Shown here: one piece after another, positions 29,811 to 61,254 of the stretch
How the letters are laid out: each line of letters begins with the position of its first letter
Numbering within the stretch: the stretch's first letter is position 1
Assembly (NCBI GenBank): GCA_001795615.1
Contig: MGKI01000004.1
Span: 22,324 to 86,323 of the forward strand
Reading direction: 5' to 3'
Source of the DNA: Candidatus Yanofskybacteria bacterium RIFCSPLOWO2_01_FULL_42_49
Lineage (GTDB): Bacteria > Patescibacteriota > Minisyncoccia > 2-02-FULL-40-12 > GWA2-44-9
Length of the DNA stretch: 64,000 nucleotides
Made by a program: the position numbers and the translations under genes
The notes under the pieces: generated by a model
What the model was told of the DNA's origin: nothing
Seen by the model: only the letters and a program-made list of their open reading frames with translations
Databases searched by the model: none

Positions 29811-29874
29811 TAGCCAACAAGCTAGTAAGCTAACAAGCTAGTAAGCTAAAGTTTAAAAATGCTTACAAGCTTAC

Positions 29875-34871: not shown

Positions 34872-34975
34872 TAATTAGCCACTAGCAATTAGTCGCTAGT
34901 TATTAGTAACTAAATCAAAATCTCGCCACTAGGCGAGATTTTGATAACGACAGATAAATACATTATTATTAGATC

Positions 34976-36137: not shown

Positions 36138-36274
36138 ATTATTCTAATTTCTAATTAACCTAATTATTCTAAAGAAGCCCTAATTCCAAAATATCTAATG
36201 CCTAAATTTTTAGTCATTTAGTCATTGGGATTTATTTAGGTCAATTAGAATAATTAGAGCAATTAGGTTAATTT

Positions 36275-36820
36275 GTGAGTAAAGGTTTTACATTAATTGA
36301 GGTAGTGGTAGTGGCTGGAATAACCGGTTTTATAACAACCATGTTTCTTATTAATTTCTCGAGATCAAGAATTAACTTTATAGAAGAGGTTAATACATTT
36401 AAATCCAAAATCAGAATAGCTCAAACAAAAGCCACATCAAGCACTCAGCTCAATAACACCATAAGATGCGGATATGGCGTCAGGTACATAAACAATCAGT
36501 CCTATGCGATATATGCGGGAGAAAGCACAAGCACATATGACTGTTCCGCCCAAAATAAAGATTACGACCCTACTGGCAGCCTAAATAACGACACTAGCGT
36601 TGAAACGATAAATTTTGCTGACGCCAAAGTAGAGTTCAAGTCAGTTTTCCGAGCAATCTATTTTGAGCCGCCTGACCCAAAGACATTTATAATTGACTCC
36701 GGGGGTTCGGTCCACAATGAACCGAATTACGCTTTGTCTGTTACATTAGGGAAAATAGGGGGCACTTGCCCACAGGACTGTAAAACAATAAATGTATTTA
36801 CATCAGGAAAAATCGAATAG
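36275..36820 (+). CDS. Minor pilin/pseudopilin (prepilin-type N-terminus)
   Basis: KGFTLIEVVVVAGITGF; GTG start. Confidence 0.7.
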   Translation: MSKGFTLIEVVVVAGITGFITTMFLINFSRSRINFIEEVNTFKSKIRIAQTKATSSTQLNNTIRCGYGVRYINNQSYAIYAGESTSTYDCSAQNKDYDPTGSLNNDTSVETINFADAKVEFKSVFRAIYFEPPDPKTFIIDSGGSVHNEPNYALSVTLGKIGGTCPQDCKTINVFTSGKIE

Positions 36821-37286
36821 CGGTTTTACTCTCATAGAAGCGATGGTCGCTTTAGTTTTGTTTACCATAGCAATGGGGCCAGTTTTTATATTAGCCACAT
36901 CTTCCATCAATGTTGCTTCTCGGATTGAGAACAATTTAATTGCCGCTAATCTTGCCCAGGAAGGGATCGAGATTGTAAGAAACATCAGGGACACGAACTG
37001 GATAAACGGATCAGAGTTTGATAATAATCTTCAAACAGGAGCTTGGCGCGTCGAATGGAATACCGTGAACGGCGGTCTTGTGGCGATTGGATCAAATCCT
37101 GCTTTAAAGAAAAATAACGGCTTATATAATTATGCGTCGGGAACAGATACTATCTTCCGAAGAACTGTAACCATATCAAAACCAAACAATGGCGAGTTGG
37201 TTCTAACCAGCTCAGTAACTTGGGTGGAAAGAGGAAATGCCAACAGAAGTATCAGCGCCGAATCACATTTATTCAATTGGAAATGA
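36792..37286 (+). CDS. Minor pilin/pseudopilin
   Basis: SGFTLIEAMVALVLFTIAMGP. Confidence 0.7.
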   Translation: MYLHQEKSNSGFTLIEAMVALVLFTIAMGPVFILATSSINVASRIENNLIAANLAQEGIEIVRNIRDTNWINGSEFDNNLQTGAWRVEWNTVNGGLVAIGSNPALKKNNGLYNYASGTDTIFRRTVTISKPNNGELVLTSSVTWVERGNANRSISAESHLFNWK

Positions 37287-37343
37287 TGCAATTAGCCATC
37301 AATAGTTAGCCACTAGAACTTAGAACTAGTGACTACTAGCTAA

Positions 37344-37859
37344 ATGAACAAAATGAATAATCAAAAAGGTTTCAGTATAGTCGAGGTTGTCGTTACCACT
37401 TTTGTGTTCTCAATAATTTCGATAATCGTTGTCACCAACTTTGTTGGCATACTCGACCTGCAAAGAAGAGGTTCTGCTGCTCAAGTTATCCAGGAAGAGG
37501 CTCTGTTTGCCGTAGAATCGATGGCCAGAGAAATAAGGGTAAGCCAAATTCAAAGCCCCAATGACCCGAATTGTACCCTTACTAGTTTAACCATTGATCA
37601 TCCCATAAACGGTCCGACTATCTATTCAGTCGGTAACGGAGTAATAAACAAGACTGTTGGCGGAAACACTTTCTCGATTACCTCTACCAAAGTTAACTTC
37701 TCCAGACTAAATTTTTGTGTAAAGGGAGCGGGCATTGACAATGAACAACCAAGAATAACTATAGTTGCTTCAATACAGCCAACAAACGGAGAAGATCTTC
37801 AATTCGACATACAAACAAGCATTTCTTCCAGAGATTTAAGGGAAGAACTACTTAACTAG
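37344..37859 (+). CDS. Minor pilin/pseudopilin
   Basis: QKGFSIVEVVVTTFVFSIIS. Confidence 0.7.
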   Translation: MNKMNNQKGFSIVEVVVTTFVFSIISIIVVTNFVGILDLQRRGSAAQVIQEEALFAVESMAREIRVSQIQSPNDPNCTLTSLTIDHPINGPTIYSVGNGVINKTVGGNTFSITSTKVNFSRLNFCVKGAGIDNEQPRITIVASIQPTNGEDLQFDIQTSISSRDLREELLN

Positions 37860-37927
37860 CGACTAGCGATTAGCGACTAGCGACTAGTTAAAGTTGCTAA
37901 TGGCTAATGGCTAATGGCTAATGGCTA

Positions 37928-38272
37928 ATGCAGAAGGGTTCAATAATTGTTTTTACTGTATTAATACTCACAATGATTTTGACGATAACTTTAACTTTGA
38001 CCAGAATATTTATTCCCCGGATACGAACCATTACAGAAGCCGCAAATTCAGTCAGCGCTATATACGCAGCTGACAGCGCCATAGAGTGGTGCCTTTATAC
38101 TAACCGTGGGAAAACTCCTTCTTTAGCTCAGCCGGCAATGGGCAACAGCGCTACATACCAAATATATAACAATGGTAATCCGTCTATCTGCCCCAATGGT
38201 GAAGCACTCAACTACCGCACCGTAGGCACATTCAGGGGAGTGAGCCGGTCATTTGAAGTATCGGAAATATAA
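37928..38272 (+). CDS. PilX-like small membrane protein (minor pilin-like)
   Basis: N-terminal hydrophobic helix QKGSIIVFTVLILTMILTITL. Confidence 0.45.
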   Translation: MQKGSIIVFTVLILTMILTITLTLTRIFIPRIRTITEAANSVSAIYAADSAIEWCLYTNRGKTPSLAQPAMGNSATYQIYNNGNPSICPNGEALNYRTVGTFRGVSRSFEVSEI

Positions 38273-47759: not shown

Positions 47760-50700
47760 ATGGATAAAATTTTCTACGACTTAAACGACAAGCAAGCCGA
47801 GGCCGTCAAAATAATTGACGGCCCGGTTTTAGTTATTTCTGGTCCAGGTTCGGGAAAGACCAAATGTCTTACTCACAGAGTCGCGCACCTAATTTCTACG
47901 GGCGTAAAACCCGAAAACATTCTTTGCCTGACCTTCACCAACAAGGCGGCCGGTGAGATGCGAGAACGAGTTTCTCGCTTACTTGAGGTTAAACCTCAAT
48001 TTAGCAGGGGACTAATTTTTGCGACTCCACTTATTGGGACATTCCACTCCATCGGCCTCAAAATTTTACGGCGAGAAATTCACCATCTCAATTACAGAAG
48101 CAACTTCACTATTTTTGATGCTGACGACCAGAAAAGTTTAGTCAAAAGAATAATCGCCGAGCTAGAGTTAGATAGTAAAAAAACCAACCCTAGCGCCGTA
48201 CTTTCCAGAATATCACGCCTAAAAACAGAATTTATTGAACCTAAAGACGCGCCTTCAGAAGAATTTTTTGAGAAAGTGGTGGGCAATATCTATAAGCGCT
48301 ACCAAGAAGAGTTAAAAAATCTTAACGCCGTTGATTTTGACGACCTCATTGTTCTTTGTGTGAAGATCTTTCAACAAAATTCGGAAACACTGAAAAAATA
48401 TCAGAATCTATGGAAATATATGCTCGTTGACGAGTATCAAGACACGAGCCGAGACCAATATGAATTTATATCCCTCCTAGCCAAGGCCAATCGCAATCTT
48501 TTTTGTATTGGAGACGACGCCCAGTGTTTACCGCCAAAGACCGAAGTTAAAACGGAAAAAGGGTTTAAAAATATTGAAGATATAGGGGTTGGGGAGACCA
48601 TATTGTCGCCAGCTGGCCTTGGGAATACATGCTATGCAATGGTTACAGGAACAAAAAAACGTTACTACAAGGGCCCTTTGCTGGAAATACAAACAAAACT
48701 TGGTTACAAACTAAGAAGTACACCCAACCATGTCACTTTCGGTAAGTTATTGCCGTCAAAAAACTTTTTCATTACTTATCTTATGTTCTCTGAAAAAATT
48801 GGCTACAGAATCGGCATAACTGTCGGTGAACGACATCCAAAAAGCAGTAAGCCGGCACTGGGACTGAATGTCAGAGCAAATCAGGAAAAGTCGGACAAAA
48901 TGTGGATACTTAAAATATCTCCCAGCCGCGCAGACGCTCAATATTGGGAAGCATACTATGCTTATAAATATGGCATCCCAACCACCATATTTTTCGCGGA
49001 TCGGGGCAAGGGAGTAAGTAACAAGATGATTTTAACGCAGAAACATATAGATAATTTGTATAAAGCGATACCCTCCGCGGAAAGAGCGGCAAACTTAATG
49101 CTGGACGAATATATTTATCACGAATATCCTCACCACAGACCCCAAGCAACCGTGAGATATCAAACAAGAAGAATAGCGGTTAACTTAAACTACTTTGGAG
49201 CAGCCCCCGGACCACATATAAAAAACTCCTTATTCAGAGGTGCCAGGGTAAGCATTAACAATAGAAACGAAGATATTAAAAAACTACTAATCAAAGAAGG
49301 GTTTAATACCAGAAAAGGTAAGGCAAGCACGTGGCGCGTGGAAACTTCCAGGAGAGACAATGGCGACGCTGAATTATTGGCGCAAAAATTAAGTTCACTG
49401 TGCAACGTAGAAATATCTAAAAATGCGCTAATTACTGACTTAAGATTTAGCTTTCTGCCGACCTCTCAAATACATCCTCACATGACAATCCCCGTATTTA
49501 ACGGAAATAAAATAATTAACGATGAGGTAGTGGGAGTTAAAAAAACAAATTACAGCGGTTTTGTATACGACTTAAATATTAAAAGAACCCACACCTTTAT
49601 TGCTGACAACTTTCCTGTTCATAATTCGATTTACCAGTTTCGTCGAGCTGACATAAGAAACATACTTAACTTTCAAAAGGATTATCCTGACGCGAAGGTC
49701 GTAATGCTGGAACAAAACTACCGTTCAACCAAAAGCATCATCACCGCCGCTAGCCACTTGATAGCTAATAATAAAAATCAAGTATCCAAAGAGTTGTGGA
49801 CCGATAACAACGAGGGAGAGAAAATATTGGCCAAAGAACTTCTGAATGAACGGCAAGAAGCAGGTTTTATTGTATCCACAGTTAGAGACATGGTCAAAAA
49901 GGGGCGCAAACCAAATGACTTCGTGGTCTTATATCGCACCCATGCCCAATCCAGAGCTGTGGAGGAAGCACTCATATCAGCAGGATTTCCTTATCATATA
50001 GTCGGGGGCATCAAGTTCTATGAAAGAAAGGAAATTAAAGACATTCTTGCTTATCTTAAATTTCTAACAAACCCGGCTGATATCATCAGCTTTGAGAGAA
50101 TATATAATGTCCCTCCGCGGGGGATAGGAGCTGCTCTGCTAGAGAAAATCACAAAACGCCCCAGTACCAGAGCAGAGAACGGTACGGGGCACAGCAAATC
50201 ACAAAACACAAATAAAAACTCAAACGTTGACTTAAGAAAAAACCTAAAAGAAATGACGAGCAGTAAAGAACTCTCAAAAAGACAGCATGAGGCTATTAAA
50301 AGTTTTCACATCCTGTTAGAAGAAATAGCTAAGGAGGCCGACAAAAGCAAACTGACAAACTTAATAAAACATGTCATCAAATCAACCGATTACGAGAAAT
50401 ACTTAAAAGAAACATGGGCACCGGAAAACGCTGAAGAACGGCTGGAAAACCTTAAAGAACTTCTCACTGTCGCCAGAAAATACGATCCGCCGGCTGGCGG
50501 ACGCGAATCATGTTATGAAGGAATGGTTAGATTTCTTGAAGAGATTGCTTTGCTTCAAGATATGGACCGCGTTAAAAATACCGATAACAAAATAACTTTG
50601 ATGACCACCCACGCTTCCAAGGGCCTTGAATTCCCGGTTGTCTTTATCATTGGTCTTGAAGAAGGGTTGTTCCCTCACTCGAGAACGCTTTTTTATCCTG

Positions 50701-50909
50701 ACGAACTTGAAGAAGAAAGACGGCTTTGCTATGTAGCTATCACAAGAGCAAAAGAAAAACTAATCCTAACTTTTACGAAATATAGAAATATATTCGGCTC
50801 AACTCAAACTAATCTCCCGTCCAGGTTTCTAGGAGAGATACCGGCGCACCTTGCGTTATTTGAAACGGGCGGAGTCGATTTTAACGACGAAGATAAAATT
50901 TACTACTAA
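47760..50909 (+). CDS. uvrD: UvrD/PcrA family ATP-dependent DNA helicase with an in-frame intein
   Basis: Motif I GPGSGKT, motif II LVDEYQDT, motif III split as GDDAQ|intein|SIYQFRRAD, motif V/VI TTHASKGLEF...VAITRAK. Confidence 0.9.
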   Translation: MDKIFYDLNDKQAEAVKIIDGPVLVISGPGSGKTKCLTHRVAHLISTGVKPENILCLTFTNKAAGEMRERVSRLLEVKPQFSRGLIFATPLIGTFHSIGLKILRREIHHLNYRSNFTIFDADDQKSLVKRIIAELELDSKKTNPSAVLSRISRLKTEFIEPKDAPSEEFFEKVVGNIYKRYQEELKNLNAVDFDDLIVLCVKIFQQNSETLKKYQNLWKYMLVDEYQDTSRDQYEFISLLAKANRNLFCIGDDAQCLPPKTEVKTEKGFKNIEDIGVGETILSPAGLGNTCYAMVTGTKKRYYKGPLLEIQTKLGYKLRSTPNHVTFGKLLPSKNFFITYLMFSEKIGYRIGITVGERHPKSSKPALGLNVRANQEKSDKMWILKISPSRADAQYWEAYYAYKYGIPTTIFFADRGKGVSNKMILTQKHIDNLYKAIPSAERAANLMLDEYIYHEYPHHRPQATVRYQTRRIAVNLNYFGAAPGPHIKNSLFRGARVSINNRNEDIKKLLIKEGFNTRKGKASTWRVETSRRDNGDAELLAQKLSSLCNVEISKNALITDLRFSFLPTSQIHPHMTIPVFNGNKIINDEVVGVKKTNYSGFVYDLNIKRTHTFIADNFPVHNSIYQFRRADIRNILNFQKDYPDAKVVMLEQNYRSTKSIITAASHLIANNKNQVSKELWTDNNEGEKILAKELLNERQEAGFIVSTVRDMVKKGRKPNDFVVLYRTHAQSRAVEEALISAGFPYHIVGGIKFYERKEIKDILAYLKFLTNPADIISFERIYNVPPRGIGAALLEKITKRPSTRAENGTGHSKSQNTNKNSNVDLRKNLKEMTSSKELSKRQHEAIKSFHILLEEIAKEADKSKLTNLIKHVIKSTDYEKYLKETWAPENAEERLENLKELLTVARKYDPPAGGRESCYEGMVRFLEEIALLQDMDRVKNTDNKITLMTTHASKGLEFPVVFIIGLEEGLFPHSRTLFYPDELEEERRLCYVAITRAKEKLILTFTKYRNIFGSTQTNLPSRFLGEIPAHLALFETGGVDFNDEDKIYY
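48525..49625 (+). mobile_element. Intein (367 aa) inserted in helicase motif III of uvrD
   Basis: Starts at the Cys after GDDAQ (CLPPKTEV); block B TPNHVTF; ends ...FPVHN followed by Ser of the extein; the length is a multiple of 3. Confidence 0.8.
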
Positions 50910-50912
50910 CCT

Positions 50913-50960
50913 CTATTAACCTGTGGATAAACGACTTGCGAAGTCGTTTATCCACAGGTT
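50913..50960 (+). terminator. uvrD terminator: perfect 18-bp stem hairpin plus T-rich tail
   Basis: CCTGTGGATAAACGACTT-gcg-AAGTCGTTTATCCACAGG then ttgttttgt. Confidence 0.7.
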
Positions 50961-50967
50961 GTTTTGT

Positions 50968-51720
50968 ATGTTTAGAGCCAAAAAGTCGCTAGGACAGAAC
51001 TTCCTTGTTAATCAGGGGATTTTAGACAAAATAATAAATGCGGCTGATCTAAACAAAAAAGATATCGTCCTTGAGATAGGGTCAGGAACAGGCGTGCTAA
51101 CGAAAAAGCTGACAGAAAACGCCGGCCGGATTGTCGCCGTTGAAAAAGACCGTCGGCTTATTGAAGAACTCAGGGAGAAGTTCAGAAACACAAACATTGA
51201 GATCGTTGAGGGAGACATTTTAAAATTCCAACCAACAATCTACAACCTAAAACCGACAACTTATAAGGTCGTCGGAAATATTCCTTACTATTTAACGTCT
51301 AATCTATTGAGAAAAATATTCGAGGATTGGCCGCAACCAAAACTTATTATACTAACAATGCAAAAAGAAGTTGCGCAAAGAATAATTGCAAAACCCCCGC
51401 GCATGAATCTCCTTGCTCTCTCGATTCAATTTTATACTGAACCGAAAATTATAAGTTATGTATCGAGGGGCAGTTTCCGACCGATGCCTAAGGTTGACTC
51501 GGCGATTATTCGGCTAACGCCTTACCAAGAATCAAGAATTATGAATTATGAATTAAGGGAAAAGTTTTTCAAACTCACTAAAACTGCTTTTGCGGGGAAA
51601 AGAAAACAACTCAAAAATACTATCGGCGCCGAAATTCTTGAAAAAACTGGGCTCAGACCGGAATCACGACCCGAAGAGTTGTCTTTGGAAGATTGGCTAC
51701 AAATTACATCTCAGGTATAA
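50968..51720 (+). CDS. rsmA: 16S rRNA (adenine1518/1519-N6)-dimethyltransferase
   Basis: KKSLGQNFLVNQGILDKII, SAM motif LEIGSGTGVLT. Confidence 0.85.
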   Translation: MFRAKKSLGQNFLVNQGILDKIINAADLNKKDIVLEIGSGTGVLTKKLTENAGRIVAVEKDRRLIEELREKFRNTNIEIVEGDILKFQPTIYNLKPTTYKVVGNIPYYLTSNLLRKIFEDWPQPKLIILTMQKEVAQRIIAKPPRMNLLALSIQFYTEPKIISYVSRGSFRPMPKVDSAIIRLTPYQESRIMNYELREKFFKLTKTAFAGKRKQLKNTIGAEILEKTGLRPESRPEELSLEDWLQITSQV

Positions 51721-51727
51721 TTAACCT

Positions 51728-52090
51728 ATGAGAGTAACCATTATTCTGTTTACGGTCCTACTATTAGCAACCGTTCCCTTGAGTGTTTTCGCTGTGGTCT
51801 TAAATCCGTTGGGAACTTCTTTCGGAGGAAGAGTAACTTCTATCATACCCTGTACCTGCAGCATCCCCCCGACAATGCTAAAAATAACTGTCGGCCCACC
51901 AAAGGGCGGTAGTTTTCTTTACATTCCGGGCATAAGCACCCTTTATATGTTCTACAATTTATTGCCCCCAAGCTGGGTTTTGGGCTTATCCATCGGCAGA
52001 CGCGAGTGCTTGGTTGGTATTCCCCCCGCCTGCACTTCTGCCGGACTTGGCGGAACCATAATCAGGATAATCGGAACATCGATATTTTAG
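51728..52090 (+). CDS. Small secreted Gly/Pro/Cys-rich protein (first gene of the T4SS-like cluster)
   Basis: Signal peptide MRVTIILFTVLLLATVPLSVFA. Confidence 0.4.
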   Translation: MRVTIILFTVLLLATVPLSVFAVVLNPLGTSFGGRVTSIIPCTCSIPPTMLKITVGPPKGGSFLYIPGISTLYMFYNLLPPSWVLGLSIGRRECLVGIPPACTSAGLGGTIIRIIGTSIF

Positions 52091-52150
52091 CCTCTCAATA
52101 TCAACAGCCGGTATGGAAATCCGGCTGTTTTTGCGTGGTATAATTAAGGG

Positions 52151-53065
52151 GTGATAAACAGATACCATGTTGTGTCTAGTTTAATGGCACTCGCTGCTGT
52201 GTTTTTGGTTATAATTGGATTTAATTACTTGAAAGTTGATCTAAATCTAAAGCCGGGCCAGGCAAATATCAACGCACCCCTTGAAAGTAACGCTGATTGG
52301 GATAACGACGGACTTAATAATAGGGATGAGTCGTACTGGAACACCGACTCAAATAATCCTGACTCTGACGGTGACGGCTATCTTGACGGAGAAGAAATTG
52401 CTTCCGGCCACGATCCGCTCATTCCGTCGCCGGATGACCTTCTCCCCACAGACGACAATTTGACGATGAAAATGTCTCAATTGGCTCTGGCCGGTTTAGT
52501 CGAGGGTTCTCTGAAATCCGGCAGTCCTAATTACGAACAATCGCTGAGCAGCTTAGCCGACGTGATAGCAGATGACGCAATAAGCAGTTTGGAAGCAGAT
52601 CTTTCAAAAGTTGACCTTGCAATTGTTGCGTCCGGCAAGGTCTCTCAACAAAAATACATCGAGGAGTTGTCTCCAGTCTATGAAGAACTCTTGAAAATAT
52701 TCATAGAACAAATGTCCGAACTGGAAAACAATCTTAACAACATTGGGGTATTTGGAATGGCTTACGGAGGCGTCCAAAAAAGTTTTGGAGGAGCCTCTTC
52801 ACATTACGAAAACATATTCGGAAAATTGATAAAACTTAATGTCCCGAAAAATTGGAAAAGTAACCACCTCGGTATAGTCAAGCTTGTTGAGGAATTATCT
52901 CAAGCAAGTCGATCAGTTGTGTCCGGTTCAAACGACCCCATAAAAGCAGTCGTGGGTTTAAACAAGATAGTGCAACTCTGGGAAATCTTGCCTGAAATAA
53001 CCAAAGCATACTCCCAAAAAATACAACTCAACGGATTAAATTCAGAATCAACCATATTCAAATAA
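52151..53065 (+). CDS. Membrane-anchored protein with thrombospondin-type-3-like Ca-binding Asp repeats
   Basis: N-terminal TM; DWDNDGLNNRDE...NPDSDGDGYLDGEE. Confidence 0.5.
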   Translation: MINRYHVVSSLMALAAVFLVIIGFNYLKVDLNLKPGQANINAPLESNADWDNDGLNNRDESYWNTDSNNPDSDGDGYLDGEEIASGHDPLIPSPDDLLPTDDNLTMKMSQLALAGLVEGSLKSGSPNYEQSLSSLADVIADDAISSLEADLSKVDLAIVASGKVSQQKYIEELSPVYEELLKIFIEQMSELENNLNNIGVFGMAYGGVQKSFGGASSHYENIFGKLIKLNVPKNWKSNHLGIVKLVEELSQASRSVVSGSNDPIKAVVGLNKIVQLWEILPEITKAYSQKIQLNGLNSESTIFK

Positions 53066-54556
53066 ATGTTCAAAAAACTGCTCCCAATTATAATAGTTCT
53101 GTCTCTCGTATTTCCGTCGTTTGTTCAGATTGCTCAAGCTGGAGTTTTAGACTCTACGATTGGTTTCAGTTCATGCGCAGCAGCTGGATTTATTAATAAC
53201 TTAATTGCGGATGGTCTAAAAGACCTAGAGGATTGGGCAGCAGAAAAACTTAAAGGCTGGATTGGTATAGGAAGCGTCGTTGGGGGGAAGACCAAAGTTC
53301 CAGTTGACGACAGCGATACTCAAGACAAGGTAGATGATTTTAAGGGTGCGTATGGAGGAAAGGAGGGCGCTCAAGATATTATTGCCAGATGTTCGGCCAG
53401 AGAAATACTTTCGGCAATGGGCCAAAATATAACCAATGTCGCCCGTACCGGAGGCAGAGACGGCGGACCGGCGTGGGTTAGGAACTGGCGCAATTTCCAG
53501 CTGGACGCCCAATACCGAGGCGAGGGAATATTCAGGGGAGTGTTGGCATCAACAAATCTCTGCAACTATTTTGGTAGTGATCTGAAAAATTTGTTCGGGG
53601 CAAATCAAAGGATAGACCTTACAAAAATAAGAACAAGGATAAACGACTTTGACTCATTCCAGGTGAAAGCCGGCTGCACTCTTCCAAGTGGATTTGATAT
53701 TGAAAAATACAAGCAGGACTTCTCCGGTAACGGCGGCTGGGAAGCGTGGTCACGGCTTCTTGAACCGCAAAACAACTTCTACGGAGCGTTGTTCCAGTCG
53801 CTTGATGAAGCAGGCAAACAAAGAGCGGCGGAAGAAGCGGCTGATATCGCTGAAGCTGCGCCAACAGGATTCACCGCTGTACGAGGCCGAAACGCAGCCG
53901 AGAGTTGCGCTATAAAAAGTCCCGCGGACGGAAGGTGTTTGGTATATAAAGACATCCTGACGCCGTCAGGAATTTTGAGCGGCAGCGTAGTGGCGGGAAT
54001 TGAAACAGAATTACAATGGGTAGCCACCACAGACGAGTTAAATGAACTTATCGCCACCGGCATTAATGTTTTGGTAAACAGGCTATGGGATTTGAGCAAT
54101 CCCGACGAGGGTGACTATATCGTACCGGGAGATCTTGATGTATCAATTTCTCCGTTTCCATCACCCGCACCTCCGCCATCCGGAGGCGGCGGGACTTGTG
54201 TTGACTCGGGTAACACTGCCGCAAACTACGACGGAGATCTTCAATCGGCAATTGACGCCGTCATTGCCAACAACCCCAACGGCATAGCCGACGCATCAAA
54301 CACAACAGACAATTCTTTTGCGTTTCTAGATTTTGTGGTTCAAGAACTTCAATCTGCCGGATTTAACGCCACGACAAATGTTCTCAACGGAAATGACAAT
54401 CCCAATACCGGGGACCTCATAGCTATTTGGCGCAATACGGACTCAACCATTGAGCGATACGATGCAGTAAGCAACGCGGGGGCGGGGGATATGTCTATGC
54501 GAAATGCGGCAACCGTCCAATATACAGGAGACATTCCATTAAGCTGCTCACAATAA
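53066..54556 (+). CDS. Secreted hypothetical protein (496 aa)
   Basis: Signal peptide MFKKLLPIIIVLSLVFPSFVQIAQA. Confidence 0.5.
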   Translation: MFKKLLPIIIVLSLVFPSFVQIAQAGVLDSTIGFSSCAAAGFINNLIADGLKDLEDWAAEKLKGWIGIGSVVGGKTKVPVDDSDTQDKVDDFKGAYGGKEGAQDIIARCSAREILSAMGQNITNVARTGGRDGGPAWVRNWRNFQLDAQYRGEGIFRGVLASTNLCNYFGSDLKNLFGANQRIDLTKIRTRINDFDSFQVKAGCTLPSGFDIEKYKQDFSGNGGWEAWSRLLEPQNNFYGALFQSLDEAGKQRAAEEAADIAEAAPTGFTAVRGRNAAESCAIKSPADGRCLVYKDILTPSGILSGSVVAGIETELQWVATTDELNELIATGINVLVNRLWDLSNPDEGDYIVPGDLDVSISPFPSPAPPPSGGGGTCVDSGNTAANYDGDLQSAIDAVIANNPNGIADASNTTDNSFAFLDFVVQELQSAGFNATTNVLNGNDNPNTGDLIAIWRNTDSTIERYDAVSNAGAGDMSMRNAATVQYTGDIPLSCSQ

Positions 54557-54561
54557 AATAA

Positions 54562-56916
54562 ATGAAGAATAACTATAGAAAATTAATACCGATAATTCTC
54601 TTGCTTGGTTTGTTTTTGCCGGTTTTTAGCGCTCACGCTGGCGTAAGCGACTGGTTTAGCATAGGCGACTGGACTTACTGGGCGGTAAGCCGTCTTTTTG
54701 CCGGTGTTCTTTTGATAATGTTCACACTGCTAGGGAAACTTATAATCGCCATGACGGTAATGCTGGATTGGGTGCTTAAGATACGGATTTACACCGATGT
54801 TCCCATCATTCAGGAGAGTTGGAAAATTATGCGCGACTTCGCCAACATGCTCTTCATCATCGCGCTGATCGTTATGGCTTATGGCACGATATTCAACATA
54901 CAAGGCTATAACTTTAAGTCTTTGATTCCAAAGTTCTTAATAGCCGCCTTGCTTATAAACTTCAGCCTGGCAATAGGGGGGCTGATAATTGACGCCACGC
55001 AGGTTCTGAATAACACATTCCTCACCGCAATGGGTGACATATCGGGTCGTTTGGGACAGGGGCTTAATCCGGCAAACCTGTTTCCTGATGCGGCTACATT
55101 ATCATCAGAAAACCAGGCAAGCGCTATAGCGAACATGGTTGTCTCCGGCAATCTGACAATAGTCGTTGGGATATTTTTGCTATTCGCATTTTTGATAAGC
55201 ACAGCTGTTCCTTTGGCTATCGCATTTGTCAGAATACCAATCTTGTGGGCGCTACTCATCATATCGCCGATGGCTTGGCTGTTGAGCATCTTGCCGGCGA
55301 CAAAAGGAGCATACAGCAAGTGGTGGCACCACTTTTTAGCCTGGAATCTATTTTTGCCTTATTATTTATTCTTCATGTACTTTGCTCTGTATTTTTTGAG
55401 CAAGCAGGATGAAGTCATCAAGGGTTTGGGACAAAAATTTGTTTACGAAAAACCATTCGAAGGATTTCCTTTTACTTTTGAGCTGATGTTTTTTTACGCC
55501 ATGGTTGCCATTTTCCTAATCGGCGGTACCAAAGTAGCCATGAGCGCCGGTACATTTTCCGGAACGGGGATAGTTAGCGTAGCAAAATGGGGGAGAGATA
55601 GGGTAGCCAACAGAGTCGGCTGGACTGCGGCCGGCAGGGCTATAAAAGGAAGGCTCGATGAAGTCGGAGAGAAGGAGGAGGCAAGAATAGCCCGACAAAC
55701 AGGGTATATGAGAGAGGGTTTGGCGCGTATTACTGGTGGAAAACGCGGATTTATAGAAGAACAACAAGCCAAAGATATCGGAGAAATCAAGAAGAGGTTT
55801 GAAAGAATTACCGACCCCGCAGAACTTGCAAAACTGATGAACCAAGGTCCGCTTAGAAACCAGCTGGCTGCCAGAGAAGTAATGAAAGACAGGGGATTGT
55901 TAACCAGCGATGATTATAAGAAAACACTCGAAATGTACGGTGGTAATAATACATTGGCCGGCAAACAATTCGCTAAAAGCATAGACTACGACAAACTTTC
56001 AAGTACAGACAGAGAGAACTGGTATAGAAATTTGACCGACGTAGAGTCCAAACGAAAAGTTGCCGAAGTCATGGCAAATAAGGGTGAGTTTGACACGATC
56101 GCTTCTATCCAAAGTGCTCAATCTTTATACGCCTTGCCCGGAGAAAAGGCTAACTTTCTTAAAAAAGCTGCCAGGCGCATTACTGACAACACGACCCTGC
56201 GTGGCCTCATGACTACGGGAAGCGACCAAGAACAGCTGGCTGTCAGAGAAATTTTGGCGGAAAGAGGGGCTTTGAACGGCTCTGATATGTTTGACACCTA
56301 TAGTATGTACAGGGCTGGGTCTAAAGAAGCAGTCGACTTTGGTACAAAAGTTGATTTCGGAAATCTATCACAAGCAGATAGACAAACATGGTACAACAAT
56401 GCTCCTGATAATGAGGTGAGGAGAAAATCGGCTGAAGTAATGGCCGAAAAAGGAGACCCGACCATGATGAACGCACCAGCGCTTGCGGCGGCTGCTAACT
56501 TGTATACTAATGATGCTGAAAAAATCAAGTTCTTAGAAAAAGCCGAGAAAAAGAACTTTATGGTTACTATCGACGCCAAGGCTGGTCTTGGAATAGTACG
56601 AAATGCCGCTAACGTCCAGCTAACAACCCCAGACGCAGTTCTTAAAAACAAAGTAACGAAGATGAAGGCCGACGCTTTGGCGGAAATAGGTTACGATGGC
56701 GGCTGGGCAAACCCTGACTTTGTTAACGCGGTTCAGGCAAAAATAGATGCACTTCAAAGATCTGAACCCTCTACCCCCGGCGGACCGCCTACAACTCCGG
56801 GAGGGCCACCCATAATGCCTAAACCAGGAGGCGGAGAAAGATTCAAGAAAGGACTACAAGACAACGCAACGGACACAAGAAGTTTGGCACAGATTTTTGC
56901 TTTAACAATCCCTTAA
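54562..56916 (+). CDS. VirB6/TrbL-like polytopic membrane protein with a C-terminal triplicated soluble repeat
   Basis: Signal peptide, then at least 6 TM helices over ~330 aa; three repeats at the C-terminus (EVMKDRGLL.., EILAERGAL.., EVMAEKGDP..). Confidence 0.5.
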   Translation: MKNNYRKLIPIILLLGLFLPVFSAHAGVSDWFSIGDWTYWAVSRLFAGVLLIMFTLLGKLIIAMTVMLDWVLKIRIYTDVPIIQESWKIMRDFANMLFIIALIVMAYGTIFNIQGYNFKSLIPKFLIAALLINFSLAIGGLIIDATQVLNNTFLTAMGDISGRLGQGLNPANLFPDAATLSSENQASAIANMVVSGNLTIVVGIFLLFAFLISTAVPLAIAFVRIPILWALLIISPMAWLLSILPATKGAYSKWWHHFLAWNLFLPYYLFFMYFALYFLSKQDEVIKGLGQKFVYEKPFEGFPFTFELMFFYAMVAIFLIGGTKVAMSAGTFSGTGIVSVAKWGRDRVANRVGWTAAGRAIKGRLDEVGEKEEARIARQTGYMREGLARITGGKRGFIEEQQAKDIGEIKKRFERITDPAELAKLMNQGPLRNQLAAREVMKDRGLLTSDDYKKTLEMYGGNNTLAGKQFAKSIDYDKLSSTDRENWYRNLTDVESKRKVAEVMANKGEFDTIASIQSAQSLYALPGEKANFLKKAARRITDNTTLRGLMTTGSDQEQLAVREILAERGALNGSDMFDTYSMYRAGSKEAVDFGTKVDFGNLSQADRQTWYNNAPDNEVRRKSAEVMAEKGDPTMMNAPALAAAANLYTNDAEKIKFLEKAEKKNFMVTIDAKAGLGIVRNAANVQLTTPDAVLKNKVTKMKADALAEIGYDGGWANPDFVNAVQAKIDALQRSEPSTPGGPPTTPGGPPIMPKPGGGERFKKGLQDNATDTRSLAQIFALTIP

Positions 56917-56928
56917 AATCCCCTAAAG

Positions 56929-57396
56929 ATGAACATATATAATCCTTCCCAAGTGGACCTAGAGGAATTACTACTAGTCAAAAAGAACTGGGATGTTTTC
57001 GCAAACAAATTTATAAAACTACCGATTAGTATAAAAGGTGTTATAACTTCTGCCACAACTGCTTATTATTTAGAGTTTCTTTCTAAAAAAACTAACTTGA
57101 ACCAAAGCCAATCATCCGATTTGTCACGGATAGTAAGAGACATTCTTCTTACTGATATCTTCTTGGGCGACTTTCCGGTATTAATATCTTCAAAACTGGG
57201 AGTTGATATGAATATCGCAAATCAAATAGCACATAAAATAGTTAGCGAGTTATTCGCGCCGGCAATAGAGGATATTAAAAACATGCAAAGGGAAAAATTC
57301 AGAGATAGAATAGCCCAAGTCAAGAATAAACAGACACAACAACCCCCGCCAAACACCGAACAAGGTAATGTGATAAACTTAAGAGATAGAACATAA
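56929..57396 (+). CDS. Hypothetical protein
   Basis: 155-aa ORF in the cluster, no recognisable motif. Confidence 0.4.
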   Translation: MNIYNPSQVDLEELLLVKKNWDVFANKFIKLPISIKGVITSATTAYYLEFLSKKTNLNQSQSSDLSRIVRDILLTDIFLGDFPVLISSKLGVDMNIANQIAHKIVSELFAPAIEDIKNMQREKFRDRIAQVKNKQTQQPPPNTEQGNVINLRDRT

Positions 57397-57400
57397 CACA

Positions 57401-57522
57401 AATCCACAAATGTACACGAATACCACAAATAGTTAAGAACCCGCCACGAAAAAGACACACGAATATATTTGTGTGAAGCCATTCGTGGCATTCGCATGTC
57501 ATTCGTAGATTAGTGTTACATT
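57401..57522 (+). promoter_or_regulatory. Conserved upstream module, copy 1 (shared with 58547-58701)
   Basis: Shares cacgaataccacaaatagt, gaatatatttgtgtgaagccattcgt and attcgtagattagtgttaYattatg with the region upstream of the VirB4 ATPase ORF. Confidence 0.55.
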
Positions 57523-57843
57523 ATGCGCTTCCAACTACCACAATTTATAGAGACGGAGACGAAATTAGTCGGGCCCTTGACCCTGAGACAGTTCCTATGG
57601 GTGGCCGGGGGAGTGGCCATACTTTTCTTATTGTTTATGACTATCGGCCTTAGTTTTGCGTTTTTTGTGGCTGGGATACCAGTGGCCGCGATTTTTACGG
57701 CTCTTGCTTTTTTCAAAATGGAAGGAATGCCGTTGATAAACTACATCGCTTATTTGCTTTCGTACTTGCTTAACCCTAAAAGATACATTTTTAGAAAATC
57801 AGAGGAAGATAATTTAAAATTTAAAAATCAAAGTGCAAAATGA
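57523..57843 (+). CDS. VirB3/PrgI-like small two-TM membrane protein
   Basis: 106 aa with two hydrophobic helices; position immediately upstream of VirB4. Confidence 0.45.
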   Translation: MRFQLPQFIETETKLVGPLTLRQFLWVAGGVAILFLLFMTIGLSFAFFVAGIPVAAIFTALAFFKMEGMPLINYIAYLLSYLLNPKRYIFRKSEEDNLKFKNQSAK

Positions 57844-57933
57844 CAATGCAAAATGTTAAAATTTTAAATCTAAATCATTTTGAATTTTAAACTGTAATTT
57901 TTAATTTTGATATTTACATTTTACATTTGAAAC

Positions 57934-58545
57934 ATGCCCAATCAATCCACCGAACAATTAGTCCCCGTTGCTGATATTCGAGAGGGTGTTGTGATATTGA
58001 AAAACGGTTCTCTCCGGATGATTCTTGAGGTTTCCGCCATCAACTTTGAACTAAGATCCGCAAATGAACAGACGGCAATACTCCAAAGCTTCCAGAGATT
58101 TCTTAATTCTGTCGACTTTCCGGTTCAGATAGTCATCAGCTCCAGAGAGTTAAACATTTCCATTTATTTAAAAACCGTCGACGGGGTTGTAGAGTCTACA
58201 GAAAATGAACTTTTAAAAATACAGGCTTCGGAATATTCACGGTTTATAAAAGAGTTGTCCGGTTTATCGAATATCATGTCCAAAAAGTTTTTCGTGGTAA
58301 TACCGTTTTACATATTCGAAACACCGGAAGTAACAGGTTTAATCCAAAGCCTGAAAGGACTGCTGAAACCCAAGGAGACCGCTAAAGAACTTACCGATGA
58401 ACAATTTAGTACTTACAGAAACCAGCTTCTGCAAAGAGCTGAATTGGTTTATGGCGGCCTTGTCGGTTTGGGCCTTAGGATAAGACCGCTTGAAGACGAA
58501 GAGATCAAAAAACTTTATTATGAGCTGTATAATCCAAGTAAGTAA
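57934..58545 (+). CDS. VirB4/TraE N-terminal domain encoded as a separate ORF
   Basis: LVPVADIREGVVILKNGSLRMILEVSAINFELRSANEQTAILQSFQRFLNSVDFPVQIV resembles the N-terminal region of Gram-positive-type VirB4 ATPases. Confidence 0.5.
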   Translation: MPNQSTEQLVPVADIREGVVILKNGSLRMILEVSAINFELRSANEQTAILQSFQRFLNSVDFPVQIVISSRELNISIYLKTVDGVVESTENELLKIQASEYSRFIKELSGLSNIMSKKFFVVIPFYIFETPEVTGLIQSLKGLLKPKETAKELTDEQFSTYRNQLLQRAELVYGGLVGLGLRIRPLEDEEIKKLYYELYNPSK

Positions 58546-58546
58546 C

Positions 58547-58701
58547 GCAAATCTACGAATGACGCACGAATACCACAAATAGTACACAAATAGCGCGCTA
58601 CAAATGCGCTCACATGAATATATTTGTGTGAAGCCATTCGTAGTCGGCGATTTGTAGAACATTCGTAGTATTCGTTAAGATTTGTAGATTAGTGTTATAT
58701 T
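58547..58701 (+). promoter_or_regulatory. Conserved upstream module, copy 2, separating the two VirB4 ORFs
   Basis: Same blocks as 57401-57522. Confidence 0.55.
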
Positions 58702-60450
58702 ATGAGCGAAGCGAATAACAAAAATAGTTTATCCGAGTACCTGGCTCCCGGGGCTTTTAATGTGTCCCCGTCCCATATTCAAATGGGGGATAAATTCGTC
58801 AGAACAGTCTTTATCGCCACCTATCCGAGATATTTGCAGACCAACTGGTTCTCTCCGATTGTTAACCTCGATCGAGTTCTTGATATTTCCATATTTATAC
58901 TGCCAAAAAATACGGCAACCGTTTTAAAACAGCTGCGAGATCAACTTACGCGGCTTGAGGCTCAAACGATGGAGGAATCCTCCAAGGGAAAAGTAAGGGA
59001 TCCTATTTTAGAAACGGCCATTAACGACATAGAAAACTTGCGGGATCGACTTCAGCAGGGCACGGACAAATTTTTTGAGTTAGGCGTATATATAACAATC
59101 TACGAAAACAGTTTAAAAGAGCTGGACGAAACAGAAAACAAACTGCGGGGCATGATGGAATACCAACTCGTCTTTCCTAAAGTATCTACATTCAGAATGC
59201 TTGAAGGATTTACTTCAACCTTGCCCCTAAACGACGACCGCCTGAACATTCACACTTCCCTCAACACTGAACCGCTTTCGTCTATATTTCCTTTTGTTTC
59301 GTTCGATTTAACTTCAGATAGCGGTATACTCTATGGCATCAACACACACAATAATTCTCTTGTTCTTTTTGACAGATTTCAGCTCGAAAATTACAACGCG
59401 GTGGTATTTGGAAAGTCCGGAGGCGGAAAAAGTTACACCGTAAAGCTCGAGATACTGAGAAGCCTGATCTTCGGCGCTCAAGTTCTGATAATTGACCCTG
59501 AGGATGAGTACAAGTATCTTGCCGAAACGGTTGGAGGTACTTCCGTAAAAATATCCATCACTTCGGACCAGCACATAAACCCCTTCGACCTGCCAGATCC
59601 CAAACCGGATGAGTCCCCGGCAGATGTTTTTAAATCTCATATTTTAGACCTGACCGGCCTTTTGAGGTTGGTACTCGGTGAGTTGACTCCCGAAGAAAGC
59701 GCCATATTGGACGAAGCATTAATACAAACATACGCCATCAAAGACATTACTCCAGATTCTAACTTTACCAATATCGAGCCTCCGGTTTTATCTGACCTTC
59801 AAAACATACTTGAGGGATTAACTGGCGCCGAATCAATGGCGGTACGAATTAAAAAATATACGCAAGGCACCTTCGCTGGGTTCTTAAATATGCCGACAAA
59901 TGTTTCTTTGAACAATAATTTAGTCGTATTCAGCATACGAGATCTGGAAGAAGAACTTAGACCGATAGCAATGTATTCTATTCTCAATCATATCTGGACA
60001 TCCGTGAGAAGAACCCAGAAAAAGCGTCTTCTGATCGTGGACGAAGCCTGGTGGCTCATGAAATACGAAATTGGAGCCGCCTTTTTGTCCAATATCGCAA
60101 AGAGGGCCAGGAAATATTATCTGGGTTTAACTACGATATCGCAAGACATTGCAGATATGCTTTCTACCGACAGGGGCAAGAGTATTGTAACTAATTCGTC
60201 TATACAGATTCTTACCAAGCAGTCGCCGGCCGCCATAGATATAATTCAAAAAACATTCAACCTTACGGACGCCGAAAAATATTATCTCCTGGAAGCAAGG
60301 GTTGGTTTTGGGTTGTTCTTCGTGGGACAAGACCACATAGGTATCAGGGTTGTGGCATCATATGCGGAGGACCAGATTATAACCTCCGACCCCAAGCAGA
60401 TACTTGAGATAGAGAAGGCAAAAGAAGAGTGGGCAAAGTTAAGAAGCTAG
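58702..60450 (+). CDS. VirB4/TraE-family T4SS ATPase (C-terminal ATPase portion)
   Basis: Walker A VVFGKSGGGKSYT, Walker B LLIVDEAWWLM; the conserved YPRYL..GWF region follows the start. Confidence 0.75.
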   Translation: MSEANNKNSLSEYLAPGAFNVSPSHIQMGDKFVRTVFIATYPRYLQTNWFSPIVNLDRVLDISIFILPKNTATVLKQLRDQLTRLEAQTMEESSKGKVRDPILETAINDIENLRDRLQQGTDKFFELGVYITIYENSLKELDETENKLRGMMEYQLVFPKVSTFRMLEGFTSTLPLNDDRLNIHTSLNTEPLSSIFPFVSFDLTSDSGILYGINTHNNSLVLFDRFQLENYNAVVFGKSGGGKSYTVKLEILRSLIFGAQVLIIDPEDEYKYLAETVGGTSVKISITSDQHINPFDLPDPKPDESPADVFKSHILDLTGLLRLVLGELTPEESAILDEALIQTYAIKDITPDSNFTNIEPPVLSDLQNILEGLTGAESMAVRIKKYTQGTFAGFLNMPTNVSLNNNLVVFSIRDLEEELRPIAMYSILNHIWTSVRRTQKKRLLIVDEAWWLMKYEIGAAFLSNIAKRARKYYLGLTTISQDIADMLSTDRGKSIVTNSSIQILTKQSPAAIDIIQKTFNLTDAEKYYLLEARVGFGLFFVGQDHIGIRVVASYAEDQIITSDPKQILEIEKAKEEWAKLRS

Positions 60451-60528
60451 GTTTTAGGGGTTAGGTTTTAGGGGTTAGGTTTTAGAAAAACTCCTAAAAG
60501 CTAAAAGCTAAAAGCTAAAAGCTGGAAA

Positions 60529-61254
60529 TTGGCACAACTTGCAGAAAACCAAAATAATTATACCAACTCGGACGACAGTGAGAAACTAGACGAGCTCGAC
60601 GAAGAAGAACAGAATTCCACTGAACTCGAAGCAGATCAGGAGCTTTATACTGCCCAATCATCGGCAGTAGAGTTGTATAACCAGGGCCAAGAATTCCGCC
60701 ATCCTTCGTATTTTAAATATTTTGTTTTACTGGCTCCCCTGGGGTTCATCGTTGACAGCCTGGATATTTTTGCCCACATCTCCGGCGCCGGTATTCCTTT
60801 CGGGTCGCTTATTTCTTTCGCTGCCACCGTAGTCATGCTTCTCATTTTCTGGTTTACCAACACAAAACAAAAACGAGCTAATGAATATATCGAAAACATA
60901 GAAAAAAACATAGAGGTGATTACCCAACGGATAGCAAACGCCGAAAGGAACATTGTCAGAGTAGCCCGCCTAAGCCGCAAAGTGCCGGGGGTGAAACAGG
61001 TTTACCGTAAACTTCACTTGAGAACTGTCCGACGGGGAAGAGTGGCGCTAAGAGGGGTCATTAAATCCTCAAAAAGCCCGATTTTAAGATATGCGGCCAT
61101 GGGAACCTTAAACCTGATCCCGTTTTTGGCTATTTTGCCGTGGCAACTGATAGGAGTTTATTTAAGTTACAGAGCAGAGAAAGAGGGTTACAAAAACGCA
61201 CAAGACGCCTCGGACTCGGTTCTGGAAACAGTAGGAGAAACAGCTGTGTCTTAA
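60529..61254 (+). CDS. Hypothetical membrane protein with an acidic N-terminus
   Basis: 241 aa, two to three TM helices. Confidence 0.5.
   Translation: MAQLAENQNNYTNSDDSEKLDELDEEEQNSTELEADQELYTAQSSAVELYNQGQEFRHPSYFKYFVLLAPLGFIVDSLDIFAHISGAGIPFGSLISFAATVVMLLIFWFTNTKQKRANEYIENIEKNIEVITQRIANAERNIVRVARLSRKVPGVKQVYRKLHLRTVRRGRVALRGVIKSSKSPILRYAAMGTLNLIPFLAILPWQLIGVYLSYRAEKEGYKNAQDASDSVLETVGETAVS

Follow-up and report, generated by a model that had tools for sequence, protein, structure and literature searches.

A probable Patescibacteria-type T4SS cluster with a two-gene VirB4 and palindromic repeats at its gene junctions in Candidatus Yanofskybacteria

A VirB4-type ATPase that is encoded in two pieces, and next to which no genes for DNA processing are found, raises the question of whether one is looking at the debris of a conjugative element or at a working part of some other transport machine. 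Such an arrangement is present in a stretch of 64,000 nucleotides (nt) of contig MGKI01000004.1 from Candidatus Yanofskybacteria bacterium RIFCSPLOWO2_01_FULL_42_49 (hereafter the window). Nine co-oriented open reading frames (ORFs) occupy its positions 51728-61254, all of them on the plus strand and exactly where a preliminary description of this DNA had placed them; that description viewed them as a type IV secretion system (T4SS) without relaxase and coupling protein. In our assessment, the locus is very probably the chromosomal, relaxase-free T4SS cluster already described for Patescibacteria, and the conjugation machinery of monoderms (mating pair formation type MPF-FATA) is its likely origin. 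All essentials of the cluster are already published, and it represents a known system in one more genome; the only item that is apparently undescribed is a family of palindromic repeats and its placement within the operon.

The VirB4 ATPase and its detached N-terminal partner

The 582-amino-acid (aa) ORF contains the Walker A (GKSGGGKS) and Walker B (LLIVDEAWW) motifs that had been read in it, and it exceeds the cutoff of the NCBIfam model NF045971 (conju_CD1110) with 356.8 bits against 325 (E value 2.3e-106), covering positions 184-733 of the 752 in the model; its scores against the TraC-F-type and VirB4_CagE models of NCBIfam lie below their cutoffs. The C-terminal domain (residues 205-561) matches the Thermoanaerobacter VirB4 of PDB entry 4ag5 with an E value of 1.9e-40, and Pfam detects P-loop_TraG (1.8e-21), AAA_10 and DUF87. 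Residues 29-177 reach 18 bits with PF03135 (CagE_TrbE_VirB; cutoff 21), a family that is precomputed on several close homologues. The CD1110 equivalog and the match to 4ag5 bear out the earlier identification of this ATPase as VirB4. Its 120 best homologues are about 580-590 aa long and 76-100% identical, the exceptions being a few shorter or partial proteins (530-572 aa) and three that bear inteins.

In NCBIfam, the 203-aa ORF matches three VirB4 models in their N-terminal regions, among them VirB4_plasma (positions 101-233; 2.6e-10) and CD1110 (positions 11-119; 8.3e-05), and it also matches the TrsD/TraD model. Its match to TrsD/TraD (NF041427; 2.1e-07) amounts to 31 bits and is far under the cutoff of 200; the protein is a distant relative of the staphylococcal TrsD and stands outside the NF041427 subfamily. 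The TraC-like Pfam family PF26593 is precomputed on the exact 203-aa protein. For an AlphaFold2 (AF2) model with a predicted local distance difference test score (pLDDT) of 67.6, the six top-ranking PDB matches are TrwK/VirB4 chains, all of them weak (E 0.025, prob 0.89). A profile of the TrsD family found nothing significant among PDB sequences, and its hhalign comparison with an 880-aa VirB4 from Firmicutes hits the right place (residues 96-174) with an E value of 0.087, which is not significant on its own. Taken together, the VirB4 model matches, PF26593 and the fold matches agree with the preliminary description, which had proposed that this ORF is the N-terminal domain of VirB4. The search recovered 753 homologues, and the 120 matches listed are all about 175-250 aa in length.

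A single CD1110 model spans both ORFs, its positions 11-119 falling on the first and 184-733 on the second. When the two ORFs are concatenated (785 aa), they align with a natural 797-aa protein of Candidatus Colwellbacteria end to end, in a single high-scoring segment pair of BLASTP at 49% identity; the two ORFs thus represent collinear portions of a single VirB4, and the earlier expectation that they would add up to a VirB4 of normal length, ~785 aa, proved correct. Two natural fusions, P0352 (797 aa) and P0319 (898 aa), are the only fused proteins among the 150 best representatives of 50% clusters, and a fused ORF is present in one genome locus (L007), while the genes are split in the remaining ones of ~62 related loci. 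In the window, the two ORFs share the same frame and are separated by 156 nt that contain five in-frame stop codons; the gap is therefore a true spacer and not the result of a single nonsense or frameshift mutation.

To place the split in context, 72 genome loci carrying the ATPase were recovered by fishing with VirB4 peptide patterns; 69 of these belong to Patescibacteria, as do all named matches among the 120 listed for VirB4. The order PrgI-TrsD-VirB4 is collinear in 55 of 56 loci. In most loci, the stop codon of trsD and the start codon of virB4 overlap or lie at most about 10 nt apart (-4 to +10; ATGA, TAATG, TAAnnnATG), which is the signature of translational coupling. The junctions are in the same frame in 21 of 61 cases, the level expected by chance, and TAA is the predominant stop. 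The two-gene organization of TrsD and VirB4 is an ancient, conserved arrangement that already bears the name TrsD + VirB4 (PMC12102498) and is not peculiar to this genome. In Paceibacteria, a group on which we found no genetic data, this would make the two-chain VirB4 ancestral across the sampled lineages (VirB4 identity down to 54%), normally translationally coupled, and re-fused in at least one lineage (Colwellbacteria). With respect to annotation, the 203-aa "hypothetical protein" should be renamed a TrsD-like VirB4 N-terminal domain protein, and the split should not be taken as the sign of a pseudogene.

Two other explanations for the gap were considered and rejected. Programmed readthrough of the stop codon or an alternative genetic code might join TrsD to VirB4, and in many relatives just one in-frame stop separates the two genes, but the same-frame junctions are at chance level, the stops are mostly TAA, and the window has five of them. 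An intron, an intein or a known RNA in the 156 nt finds no support either, since Rfam returned no match apart from one chance microRNA model (E 0.8). Inteins do occur in some VirB4 homologues; they sit near the P-loop, elsewhere than the trsD-virB4 gap. Inteins with a LAGLIDADG endonuclease were observed in the homologues P0014, P0017 and P0040 (1144-1241 aa; Harrisonbacteria and others) and in the loci L054 and L063. Their insertion site is near residue ~231, at the P-loop; tblastn alignments resume at query residue 232 past a gap of 2.4-2.6 kb.

Composition, setting and possible function of the cluster

The 106-aa protein encoded ahead of trsD matches Pfam PrgI (PF12666; 1.4e-11) with 45.2 bits against a cutoff of 27, so that its reading as VirB3-like stands; TcpE matches weakly. 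It has a hydrophobic hairpin at residues 19-66 and a conserved position relative to virB4, and a PrgI/VirB3-like protein is the expected membrane anchor of VirB4. The 784-aa protein possesses about six hydrophobic helices within residues 1-330, followed by a large hydrophilic C-terminal region with a Pro/Gly-rich tail. Pfam TrbL is matched by 10 of its 46 aligned homologues (best 1.3e-11), and many homologues carry a precomputed PF04610 or PF19590 annotation. An AF2 model of residues 1-400 (pLDDT 80.9) yields the TrwI/VirB6 of R388 as the top five PDB matches (E 8e-3 to 3e-2, prob 1.00, template modelling (TM) score normalized to the target 0.39-0.45). By way of homologues and predicted fold, we regard the protein as VirB6/TrbL-like. 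This part of the earlier description is upheld; the triplicated C-terminal domain that it had also reported is a tandem duplication (residues 415-509 and 539-632; 43% identity, E 2e-21), and a third copy is vestigial at best (E 0.14). Profile searches, which the same description had named as a check, hence place PrgI and VirB4 above their cutoffs and reach TrbL via homologues.

Database searches returned identical matches for both VirB4 pieces in Candidatus Yanofskybacteria RIFCSPLOWO2_01_FULL (the 203-aa protein is OGN23182.1), and the nearest relatives come from Yanofsky-, Colwell-, Taylor- and Harrisonbacteria, all of them Paceibacteria/Parcubacteria. The "Saccharibacteria-like" setting suggested previously has to be replaced, as exact and near-exact matches are to Candidatus Yanofskybacteria. 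VirB4 proteins of the Firmicutes type are only 22-25% identical to that of the window. On longer contigs from the same organism, the cluster is flanked by uvrD-ksgA upstream and by jag-yidC-yidD-rnpA and then dnaA and dnaN downstream, which puts it a few kb from rnpA-dnaA-dnaN. A comparison of synteny, again proposed beforehand, shows the same housekeeping flanks across ~65 genomes, with yidC downstream in 52 of 52 and ksgA upstream in 35 of 35 cases. In all genomes examined the cluster lies between uvrD-ksgA and jag-yidC-rnpA-dnaA, and not in the setting of a mobile element. The GC content of the cluster is 0.38-0.47, with 52-57 kb slightly above the adjacent 0.40-0.43; the whole window ranges from 0.38 to 0.55.

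Among the Paceibacteria loci, the median identity to the window protein is 77% for VirB4, 56% for TrsD and 53% for PrgI, compared with 53-56% for the housekeeping neighbours UvrD, KsgA, YidC and Jag. Since VirB4 peptides served to recover the loci, this comparison is biased and the value for VirB4 is inflated. The other cluster proteins range from 32 to 36%: the VirB6-like protein, the 304-aa protein with thrombospondin type-3 (TSP3) repeats (32%; 41 syntenic loci), the 496-aa protein (36%; 42 loci), and the 155-aa and 241-aa proteins (35% each; 25 and 17 loci). These values suggest that the VirB4 motor is under purifying selection, with a constraint exceeding that on housekeeping genes, and they point to a pattern in which a constrained cytoplasmic motor stands beside fast-diverging envelope and extracellular parts. 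An ATPase more conserved than housekeeping genes, in the company of rapidly changing secreted and channel proteins, is what one would expect of a machine that works at the host interface.

A contig from the same study (L004:1-3240, compared with window positions 54973-57529) shares 99.83% DNA identity with the window from 6 nt inside prgI to the window end. Upstream of prgI there is no DNA similarity, and the identity of its VirB6-like and 155-aa-like genes drops to 31% and 40%; a gene for an NYN-domain protein is inserted before prgI, flanked by the duplicated ~35-nt 5' end of prgI. This difference is due either to an exchange of the channel/surface module between strains or to a chimeric assembly. 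It is conceivable, if improbable, that a swap of the whole VirB6/surface module beside an invariant motor is a mechanism of host-range switching.

The genes that would turn such a cluster into a conjugation apparatus were sought by a Pfam scan of all window ORFs of at least 296 aa outside the cluster and several smaller ones; a 310-aa ORF (3695-4627) was identified by reading its translation only. The scanned ORFs include PolA, a ComM-like protein, PNPase, IF-2, LigA, GatA, the CCA-adding enzyme, an ORF with Phage_integrase domains, a ComF-like protein and M23 peptidases, as well as PilM, PilB, PilT and PilC. None of those scanned within the 64-kb window is a relaxase, a coupling protein (VirD4/TcpA) or VirB11, in line with what had been reported; T2SSE ATPases are confined to PilB and PilT of the type IV pilus cluster at 27-38 kb. 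This second cluster, also noticed earlier, is complete and comprises PilM, PilB, PilT, PilC, pilins and a prepilin peptidase. It extends over positions 27097-38272 (plus strand) and is flanked by genes for the ComM-like protein of the Mg-chelatase family (11018-12553, minus strand) and the ComF-like protein (26232-27182, minus strand), so that competence and pilus functions share the same 64 kb with the T4SS.

Quinonero-Coronel et al. (2025, PMC12102498) placed the VirB4 proteins of Patescibacteria in a clade related to MPF-FATA and found TrsD, which resembles the VirB4 N-terminus, to be the most abundant T4SS component of this phylum. In the clusters that they surveyed, PrgI/VirB3 and VirB6 are nearby and a relaxase is almost always absent, and those of Paceibacteria are located near dnaA, dnaN, rnpA and ksgA (PMC12102498). 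The Saccharibacteria counterpart, likewise without relaxase and coupling protein, is essential for epibiotic growth as judged by transposon sequencing (Wang et al. 2023, PMC10633639); its essentiality and the missing relaxase and type IV coupling protein (T4CP) are restated in a 2025 review (PMC12857230). The locus studied here corresponds to these systems (PMC12102498; Southlakia epibionticum SEML1_0006-0019, PMC10633639) in its VirB4 with adjacent TrsD, its PrgI/VirB3 and VirB6, the lack of an adjoining relaxase or T4CP, the proximity to dnaA, dnaN, rnpA and ksgA, and the co-occurrence of type IV pili. It differs in that neither a VirB2-like pilin array nor a VirB1-like hydrolase is recognisable, although the survey noted pilins close to virB4 in many genomes and an association of VirB1 with Paceibacteria, and in that its trsD and virB4 genes are parted by a 155-nt palindromic element. 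Essentiality is known for the Saccharibacteria system only.

Three better-studied systems provide further points of reference. The staphylococcal MPF-FATA systems of pGO1/pSK41 (TrsC, TrsD, TrsE) also have a separate small TrsD/TraD (NF041427) just upstream of VirB4 and a VirB3-like gene before it, and no other classical T4SS subclass has its VirB4 N-terminal-like domain as a protein of its own; unlike the chromosomal cluster described here, they are conjugative plasmid systems with relaxase and coupling protein, and the pGO1 subclass is without a recognisable VirB6 (PMC12102498), whereas one is present here. The CD1110-family VirB4 of clostridial conjugative transposons (NF045971), the best-scoring curated model, and the VirB4 of T. 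pseudethanolicus (4ag5) share the conserved Walker A and B motifs and C-terminal domain with the window protein, but those proteins are single chains of ~750-880 aa (the L071 homologue has 880 aa) and not two polypeptides. The Trw system of R388 (TrwK/VirB4, TrwM/VirB3, TrwI/VirB6; 7o3v, 7o41, 8rtb) supplies the best structural matches for the TrsD-like and VirB6-like models and, with a VirB4 N-terminal domain that binds VirB3 at the membrane, a working picture. It is in other respects unlike the present cluster, as it belongs to a diderm and has an outer-membrane core, a VirB2/VirB5 pilus, VirB11 and VirD4; identities are 8-16% and fold scores weak.

We envision that TrsD joins VirB4 non-covalently to give a functional VirB4 hexamer made of two kinds of chain, and that this motor would dock via PrgI onto the VirB6 channel in the membrane. 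Since neither a relaxase nor a coupling protein is encoded nearby, we infer that the machine does not conjugate DNA. More likely, it would move proteins or other macromolecules across the host-cell interface, with type IV pili giving contact and the rapidly diverging secreted and surface proteins encoded upstream serving as its host-facing parts; the direction of transport could be either export of effectors or import of host material. The preliminary description had likewise favoured host interaction over conjugation. The missing relaxase and T4CP in the window agree with it, while the role itself is extrapolated from Saccharibacteria genetics (PMC10633639). On this interpretation, the cluster exemplifies a machine to which a central role in the epibiotic life of Patescibacteria is currently ascribed: a T4SS that descends from conjugation systems, no longer has their DNA-processing components and has become essential in the sole species tested.

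Several points weigh against this reading, in addition to the sampling bias in the conservation figures. The physical interaction of TrsD with VirB4 is one that we infer, and a function in host interaction would be carried over to Paceibacteria from essentiality data on one Saccharibacteria species only. The 784-aa protein and its first 400 aa match no Pfam or NCBIfam model at E values up to 0.1, TrbL PF04610 and PF19590 included, and the fold matches of both TrsD and VirB6 are weak (E 0.008-0.025, TM scores 0.3-0.45). VirB8-, VirB1- and VirB2-like genes were not recognised in the cluster by Pfam and NCBIfam; as regards a VirB2-like pilin, no cluster protein matches PF04956 or PF18895 at E values up to 0.1. 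Finally, VirD4-like genes are located far from virB4 in many Patescibacteria (PMC12102498), and a coupling protein or a relaxase could be encoded elsewhere in the genome.

A rather unlikely alternative is an inward machine in which VirB4 powers uptake, as in the ComB system of Helicobacter or the Ced system of archaea, and feeds host nucleic acids or other macromolecules to a cell unable to make nucleotides. The 582-aa protein has weak matches to the ATPases of Ced DNA import, CedB (4.1e-10) and CedD, which are far below cutoff and reflect generic ATPase similarity; the ComM-like and ComF-like genes and the type IV pili lie in the same window, import systems also lack relaxase and T4CP, and a 2026 preprint ties the VirB4 of Patescibacteria to macromolecule transfer in an RNA-feeding parasite (10.64898/2026.06.21.733656). 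However, deletion of comEC in Southlakia abolishes competence and not viability while the T4SS is still essential, and the authors of that work favour protein export or 'an alternative capacity' (PMC10633639, PMC12857230). Components specific to ComB or Ced are absent from the cluster, and transport direction is not readable from sequence.

We consider it very unlikely that the cluster is a conjugative element, either an integrative and conjugative element or a plasmid, intact or decaying, with a relaxase and a coupling protein that are encoded beyond the window or were recently lost. VirB4 does match an equivalog of conjugative elements (CD1110) best, PrgI, TrsD and TrbL are all conjugation families, and a few Patescibacteria do have relaxases (PMC12102498). 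Yet the same gene order between the same housekeeping genes near dnaA recurs in ~65 genomes whose VirB4 identity goes down to 54%, and the search within 64 kb found neither relaxase nor T4CP; the sole tyrosine recombinase of the window, the ORF with Phage_integrase domains, is 33 kb off the cluster. A motor more constrained than housekeeping genes is, moreover, the opposite of decay.

Palindromic repeats at the gene junctions

The spacer between trsD and virB4 is occupied by a near-perfect hairpin, copy B, whose RNA has a minimum free energy of -59.9 kcal/mol (z -6.9; equalled by 0 of 200 shuffled sequences). Its first three bases are the stop codon of trsD, and its last base lies 4 nt from the ATG of virB4. 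The shorter copy A (-34.4 kcal/mol, z -5.1) opens with the TAA stop of the 155-aa gene and stretches to within 2 nt of the prgI start codon, an ATG at 57523. Both copies are homologous in three blocks, one of them 31 nt at 97%, and they are the sole two copies in the window; the motif CATTCGTAG occurs four times, each time within A or B, against an expectation of 0.23. Relatives vary at the trsD-virB4 junction: a 90%-identical one (L046) has a 19-nt spacer without the element, another (L005) has a different, AT-rich palindrome, and L052 (78% identity) carries members of the A/B family at both junctions.

Metagenome contigs were searched with the terminal 17-mer, whose matches were mostly due to chance and were filtered by blastn; the exact 26-mer of the element core was found in none of these contigs. 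About 20 full-length copies of 62-155 nt emerged, with the termini TAATGCAAATCTAC...GTAGATTTGCATTA and up to three copies on a contig, and none of the contigs bearing them has T4SS genes. The end of most copies is followed, at a distance of 2-12 nt, by the start of an ORF, and six copies provide the preceding ORF with its stop codon through their terminal TAA. Given a dispersed, multi-copy hairpin family and a short gap in relatives, the 156-nt gap is therefore to be understood as the insertion of a repeat of the REP/MITE-like kind. The A/B family shares with REP/BIME, Correia/NEMIS, RUP and MITE-like repeats the form of 80-160-nt hairpins with conserved inverted termini and a dispersed, intergenic, variably present distribution; it differs from these by the striking closeness of its copies to start codons (2-12 nt), by sometimes supplying the stop of the upstream gene, and by termini that match no Rfam family. 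The family as such has no Rfam match, no paper describing such repeats in this phylum was found, and neither a transposase partner nor a clear target-site duplication was identified.

It is extremely improbable that the two-piece VirB4 is a recent disruption (a pseudogene, an assembly error or the insertion of the palindrome into an intact virB4), for although both ORFs are in the same frame, a mobile-looking palindrome exactly fills the gap, and deletion of 153 nt (58545-58697) yields an open frame (...YNPSK-YI-MSEANN), a stop codon is present at the homologous position even in relatives that lack the element (L005, ...YNPSK-TAA; L046), the split extends to all but L007 of the ~62 loci and to all 120 listed of the 753 homologues, independent assemblies from at least four samples agree in this sequence, both halves are strongly conserved, and same-frame junctions occur at chance level. 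A model in which the element recently split virB4 with duplication of TA (...SK-YI-MSE...) was rejected on account of the stop at the homologous codon in element-free relatives and the near-universal split.

The ancestral two-gene order, into which a repeat has moved, remains the reading that we prefer, and the hairpin elements are most simply viewed as neutral or selfish intergenic repeats; small palindromic repeats would in this case be able to occupy even the tight gene junctions of an operon. They may be tolerated because folding brings the upstream stop and the downstream start together, and they might tune relative expression or take part in coupling or in the processing of the transcript. 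Their position near starts is as expected if only insertions that restore stop-start proximity by folding are tolerated. Against this idea it should be noted that their closeness to starts may just reflect very short intergenic spacers. A more far-reaching proposal, that the elements are a new kind of "coupling-preserving" hairpin (the RNA folds and brings stop and start together, and terminating ribosomes re-initiate across the base of the hairpin) or processing/stability sites that set the TrsD:VirB4:PrgI stoichiometry, strikes us as decidedly improbable. If either were true, ultra-compact genomes could take up a mobile repeat even at overlapping gene junctions, which would otherwise be closed to insertions.

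Other repeats were seen in and around the operon. An AT-rich inverted repeat between prgI and trsD (57811-57914) does not fold unusually (z +0.44), and AT-rich inverted repeats with motifs like AAAATGCAAAATGACA / CATTTTACATTT occupy differing operon junctions in relatives (L005:9855-9983, L046:9240-9370, L051:1611-1732). Three more pairs of small repeats (84-87% identity, 60-115 nt) are present in the window: 61258-61317/36207-36266, the first copy of which is directly 3' of the last cluster gene, 10723-10808/62166-62251, and 7466-7580/10836-10950. The genome is apparently rich in short repeat families. A perfect hairpin with a 20-bp stem (50917-50961), unlike A and B in sequence, starts immediately downstream of the uvrD stop codon and extends into the region around the GTG annotated as the start of ksgA.

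The remaining cluster genes and the wider window

All features of the cluster are compiled in Table 1. The three proteins encoded first, two of which had been noted before as secreted, have one N-terminal hydrophobic segment each. That of the 304-aa protein covers residues 4-31, and its TSP3_bac match (3.5e-08) reaches 33.6 bits against a cutoff of 25. In the alignment of the 496-aa protein, Cys, Arg and Gly positions are invariant, including C166, C204, C281 and C291; a profile search of PDB sequences gave nothing significant, and Pfam found nothing on 15 homologues. Like the 496-aa protein, the 120-aa, 155-aa and 241-aa proteins match no family of Pfam or NCBIfam. Ahead of the 120-aa gene, a promoter-like site (TTGGCT-17-TATAAT, 51693-51721) was found by consensus match only. 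The last gene encodes a membrane protein, as described previously, with hydrophobic segments at residues 64-112 and 185-212.

Table 1. Genes and repeat elements of the cluster, with their positions in the window
Feature	Position	Strand	Basis or remark
120-aa protein, N-terminal hydrophobic segment 1-30, Cys-containing; accessory	51728..52090	+	Poorly conserved; seen in 6 of 65 related loci
304-aa protein, secreted or anchored in the membrane, with bacterial thrombospondin type-3 (Ca-binding) repeats; fast-evolving surface component	52151..53065	+	Pfam TSP3_bac
496-aa secreted protein, conserved in the cluster	53066..54556	+	Signal-like segment 1-28
784-aa VirB6/TrbL-like polytopic protein ("extended VirB6")	54562..56916	+	Homologues and fold
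155-aa soluble protein, variably present	56929..57396	+	Without hydrophobic segment; 25 loci
Palindromic repeat element, copy A	57394..57520	.	RNA folding, homology to copy B
106-aa PrgI/VirB3-like membrane protein	57523..57843	+	Pfam PrgI
203-aa TrsD-like protein, detached VirB4 N-terminal domain	57934..58545	+	NCBIfam, PF26593, fusions
Palindromic repeat element, copy B, 155 nt	58543..58697	.	RNA folding
582-aa VirB4 ATPase, rest of N-terminal domain and RecA-like C-terminal domain	58702..60450	+	NCBIfam, PDB
241-aa membrane protein, last cluster gene	60529..61254	+	Acidic N-terminus, basic coiled region

Outside the cluster, the UvrD/PcrA-type helicase (1049 aa; 47760-50909, plus strand) contains an intein, with a Cys at the start of the insertion and HN-S at its end; Pfam Intein_splicing is found on the identical L001 protein. 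A GC-rich island at ~4600-7000 reaches a GC content of up to 0.55, as opposed to ~0.42 elsewhere, and its minus-strand ORFs (5205-5657, 5648-6463, 6550-6969) encode small Pro/Ala-rich and Gly-rich proteins; it may represent foreign DNA or encode unusual surface proteins.

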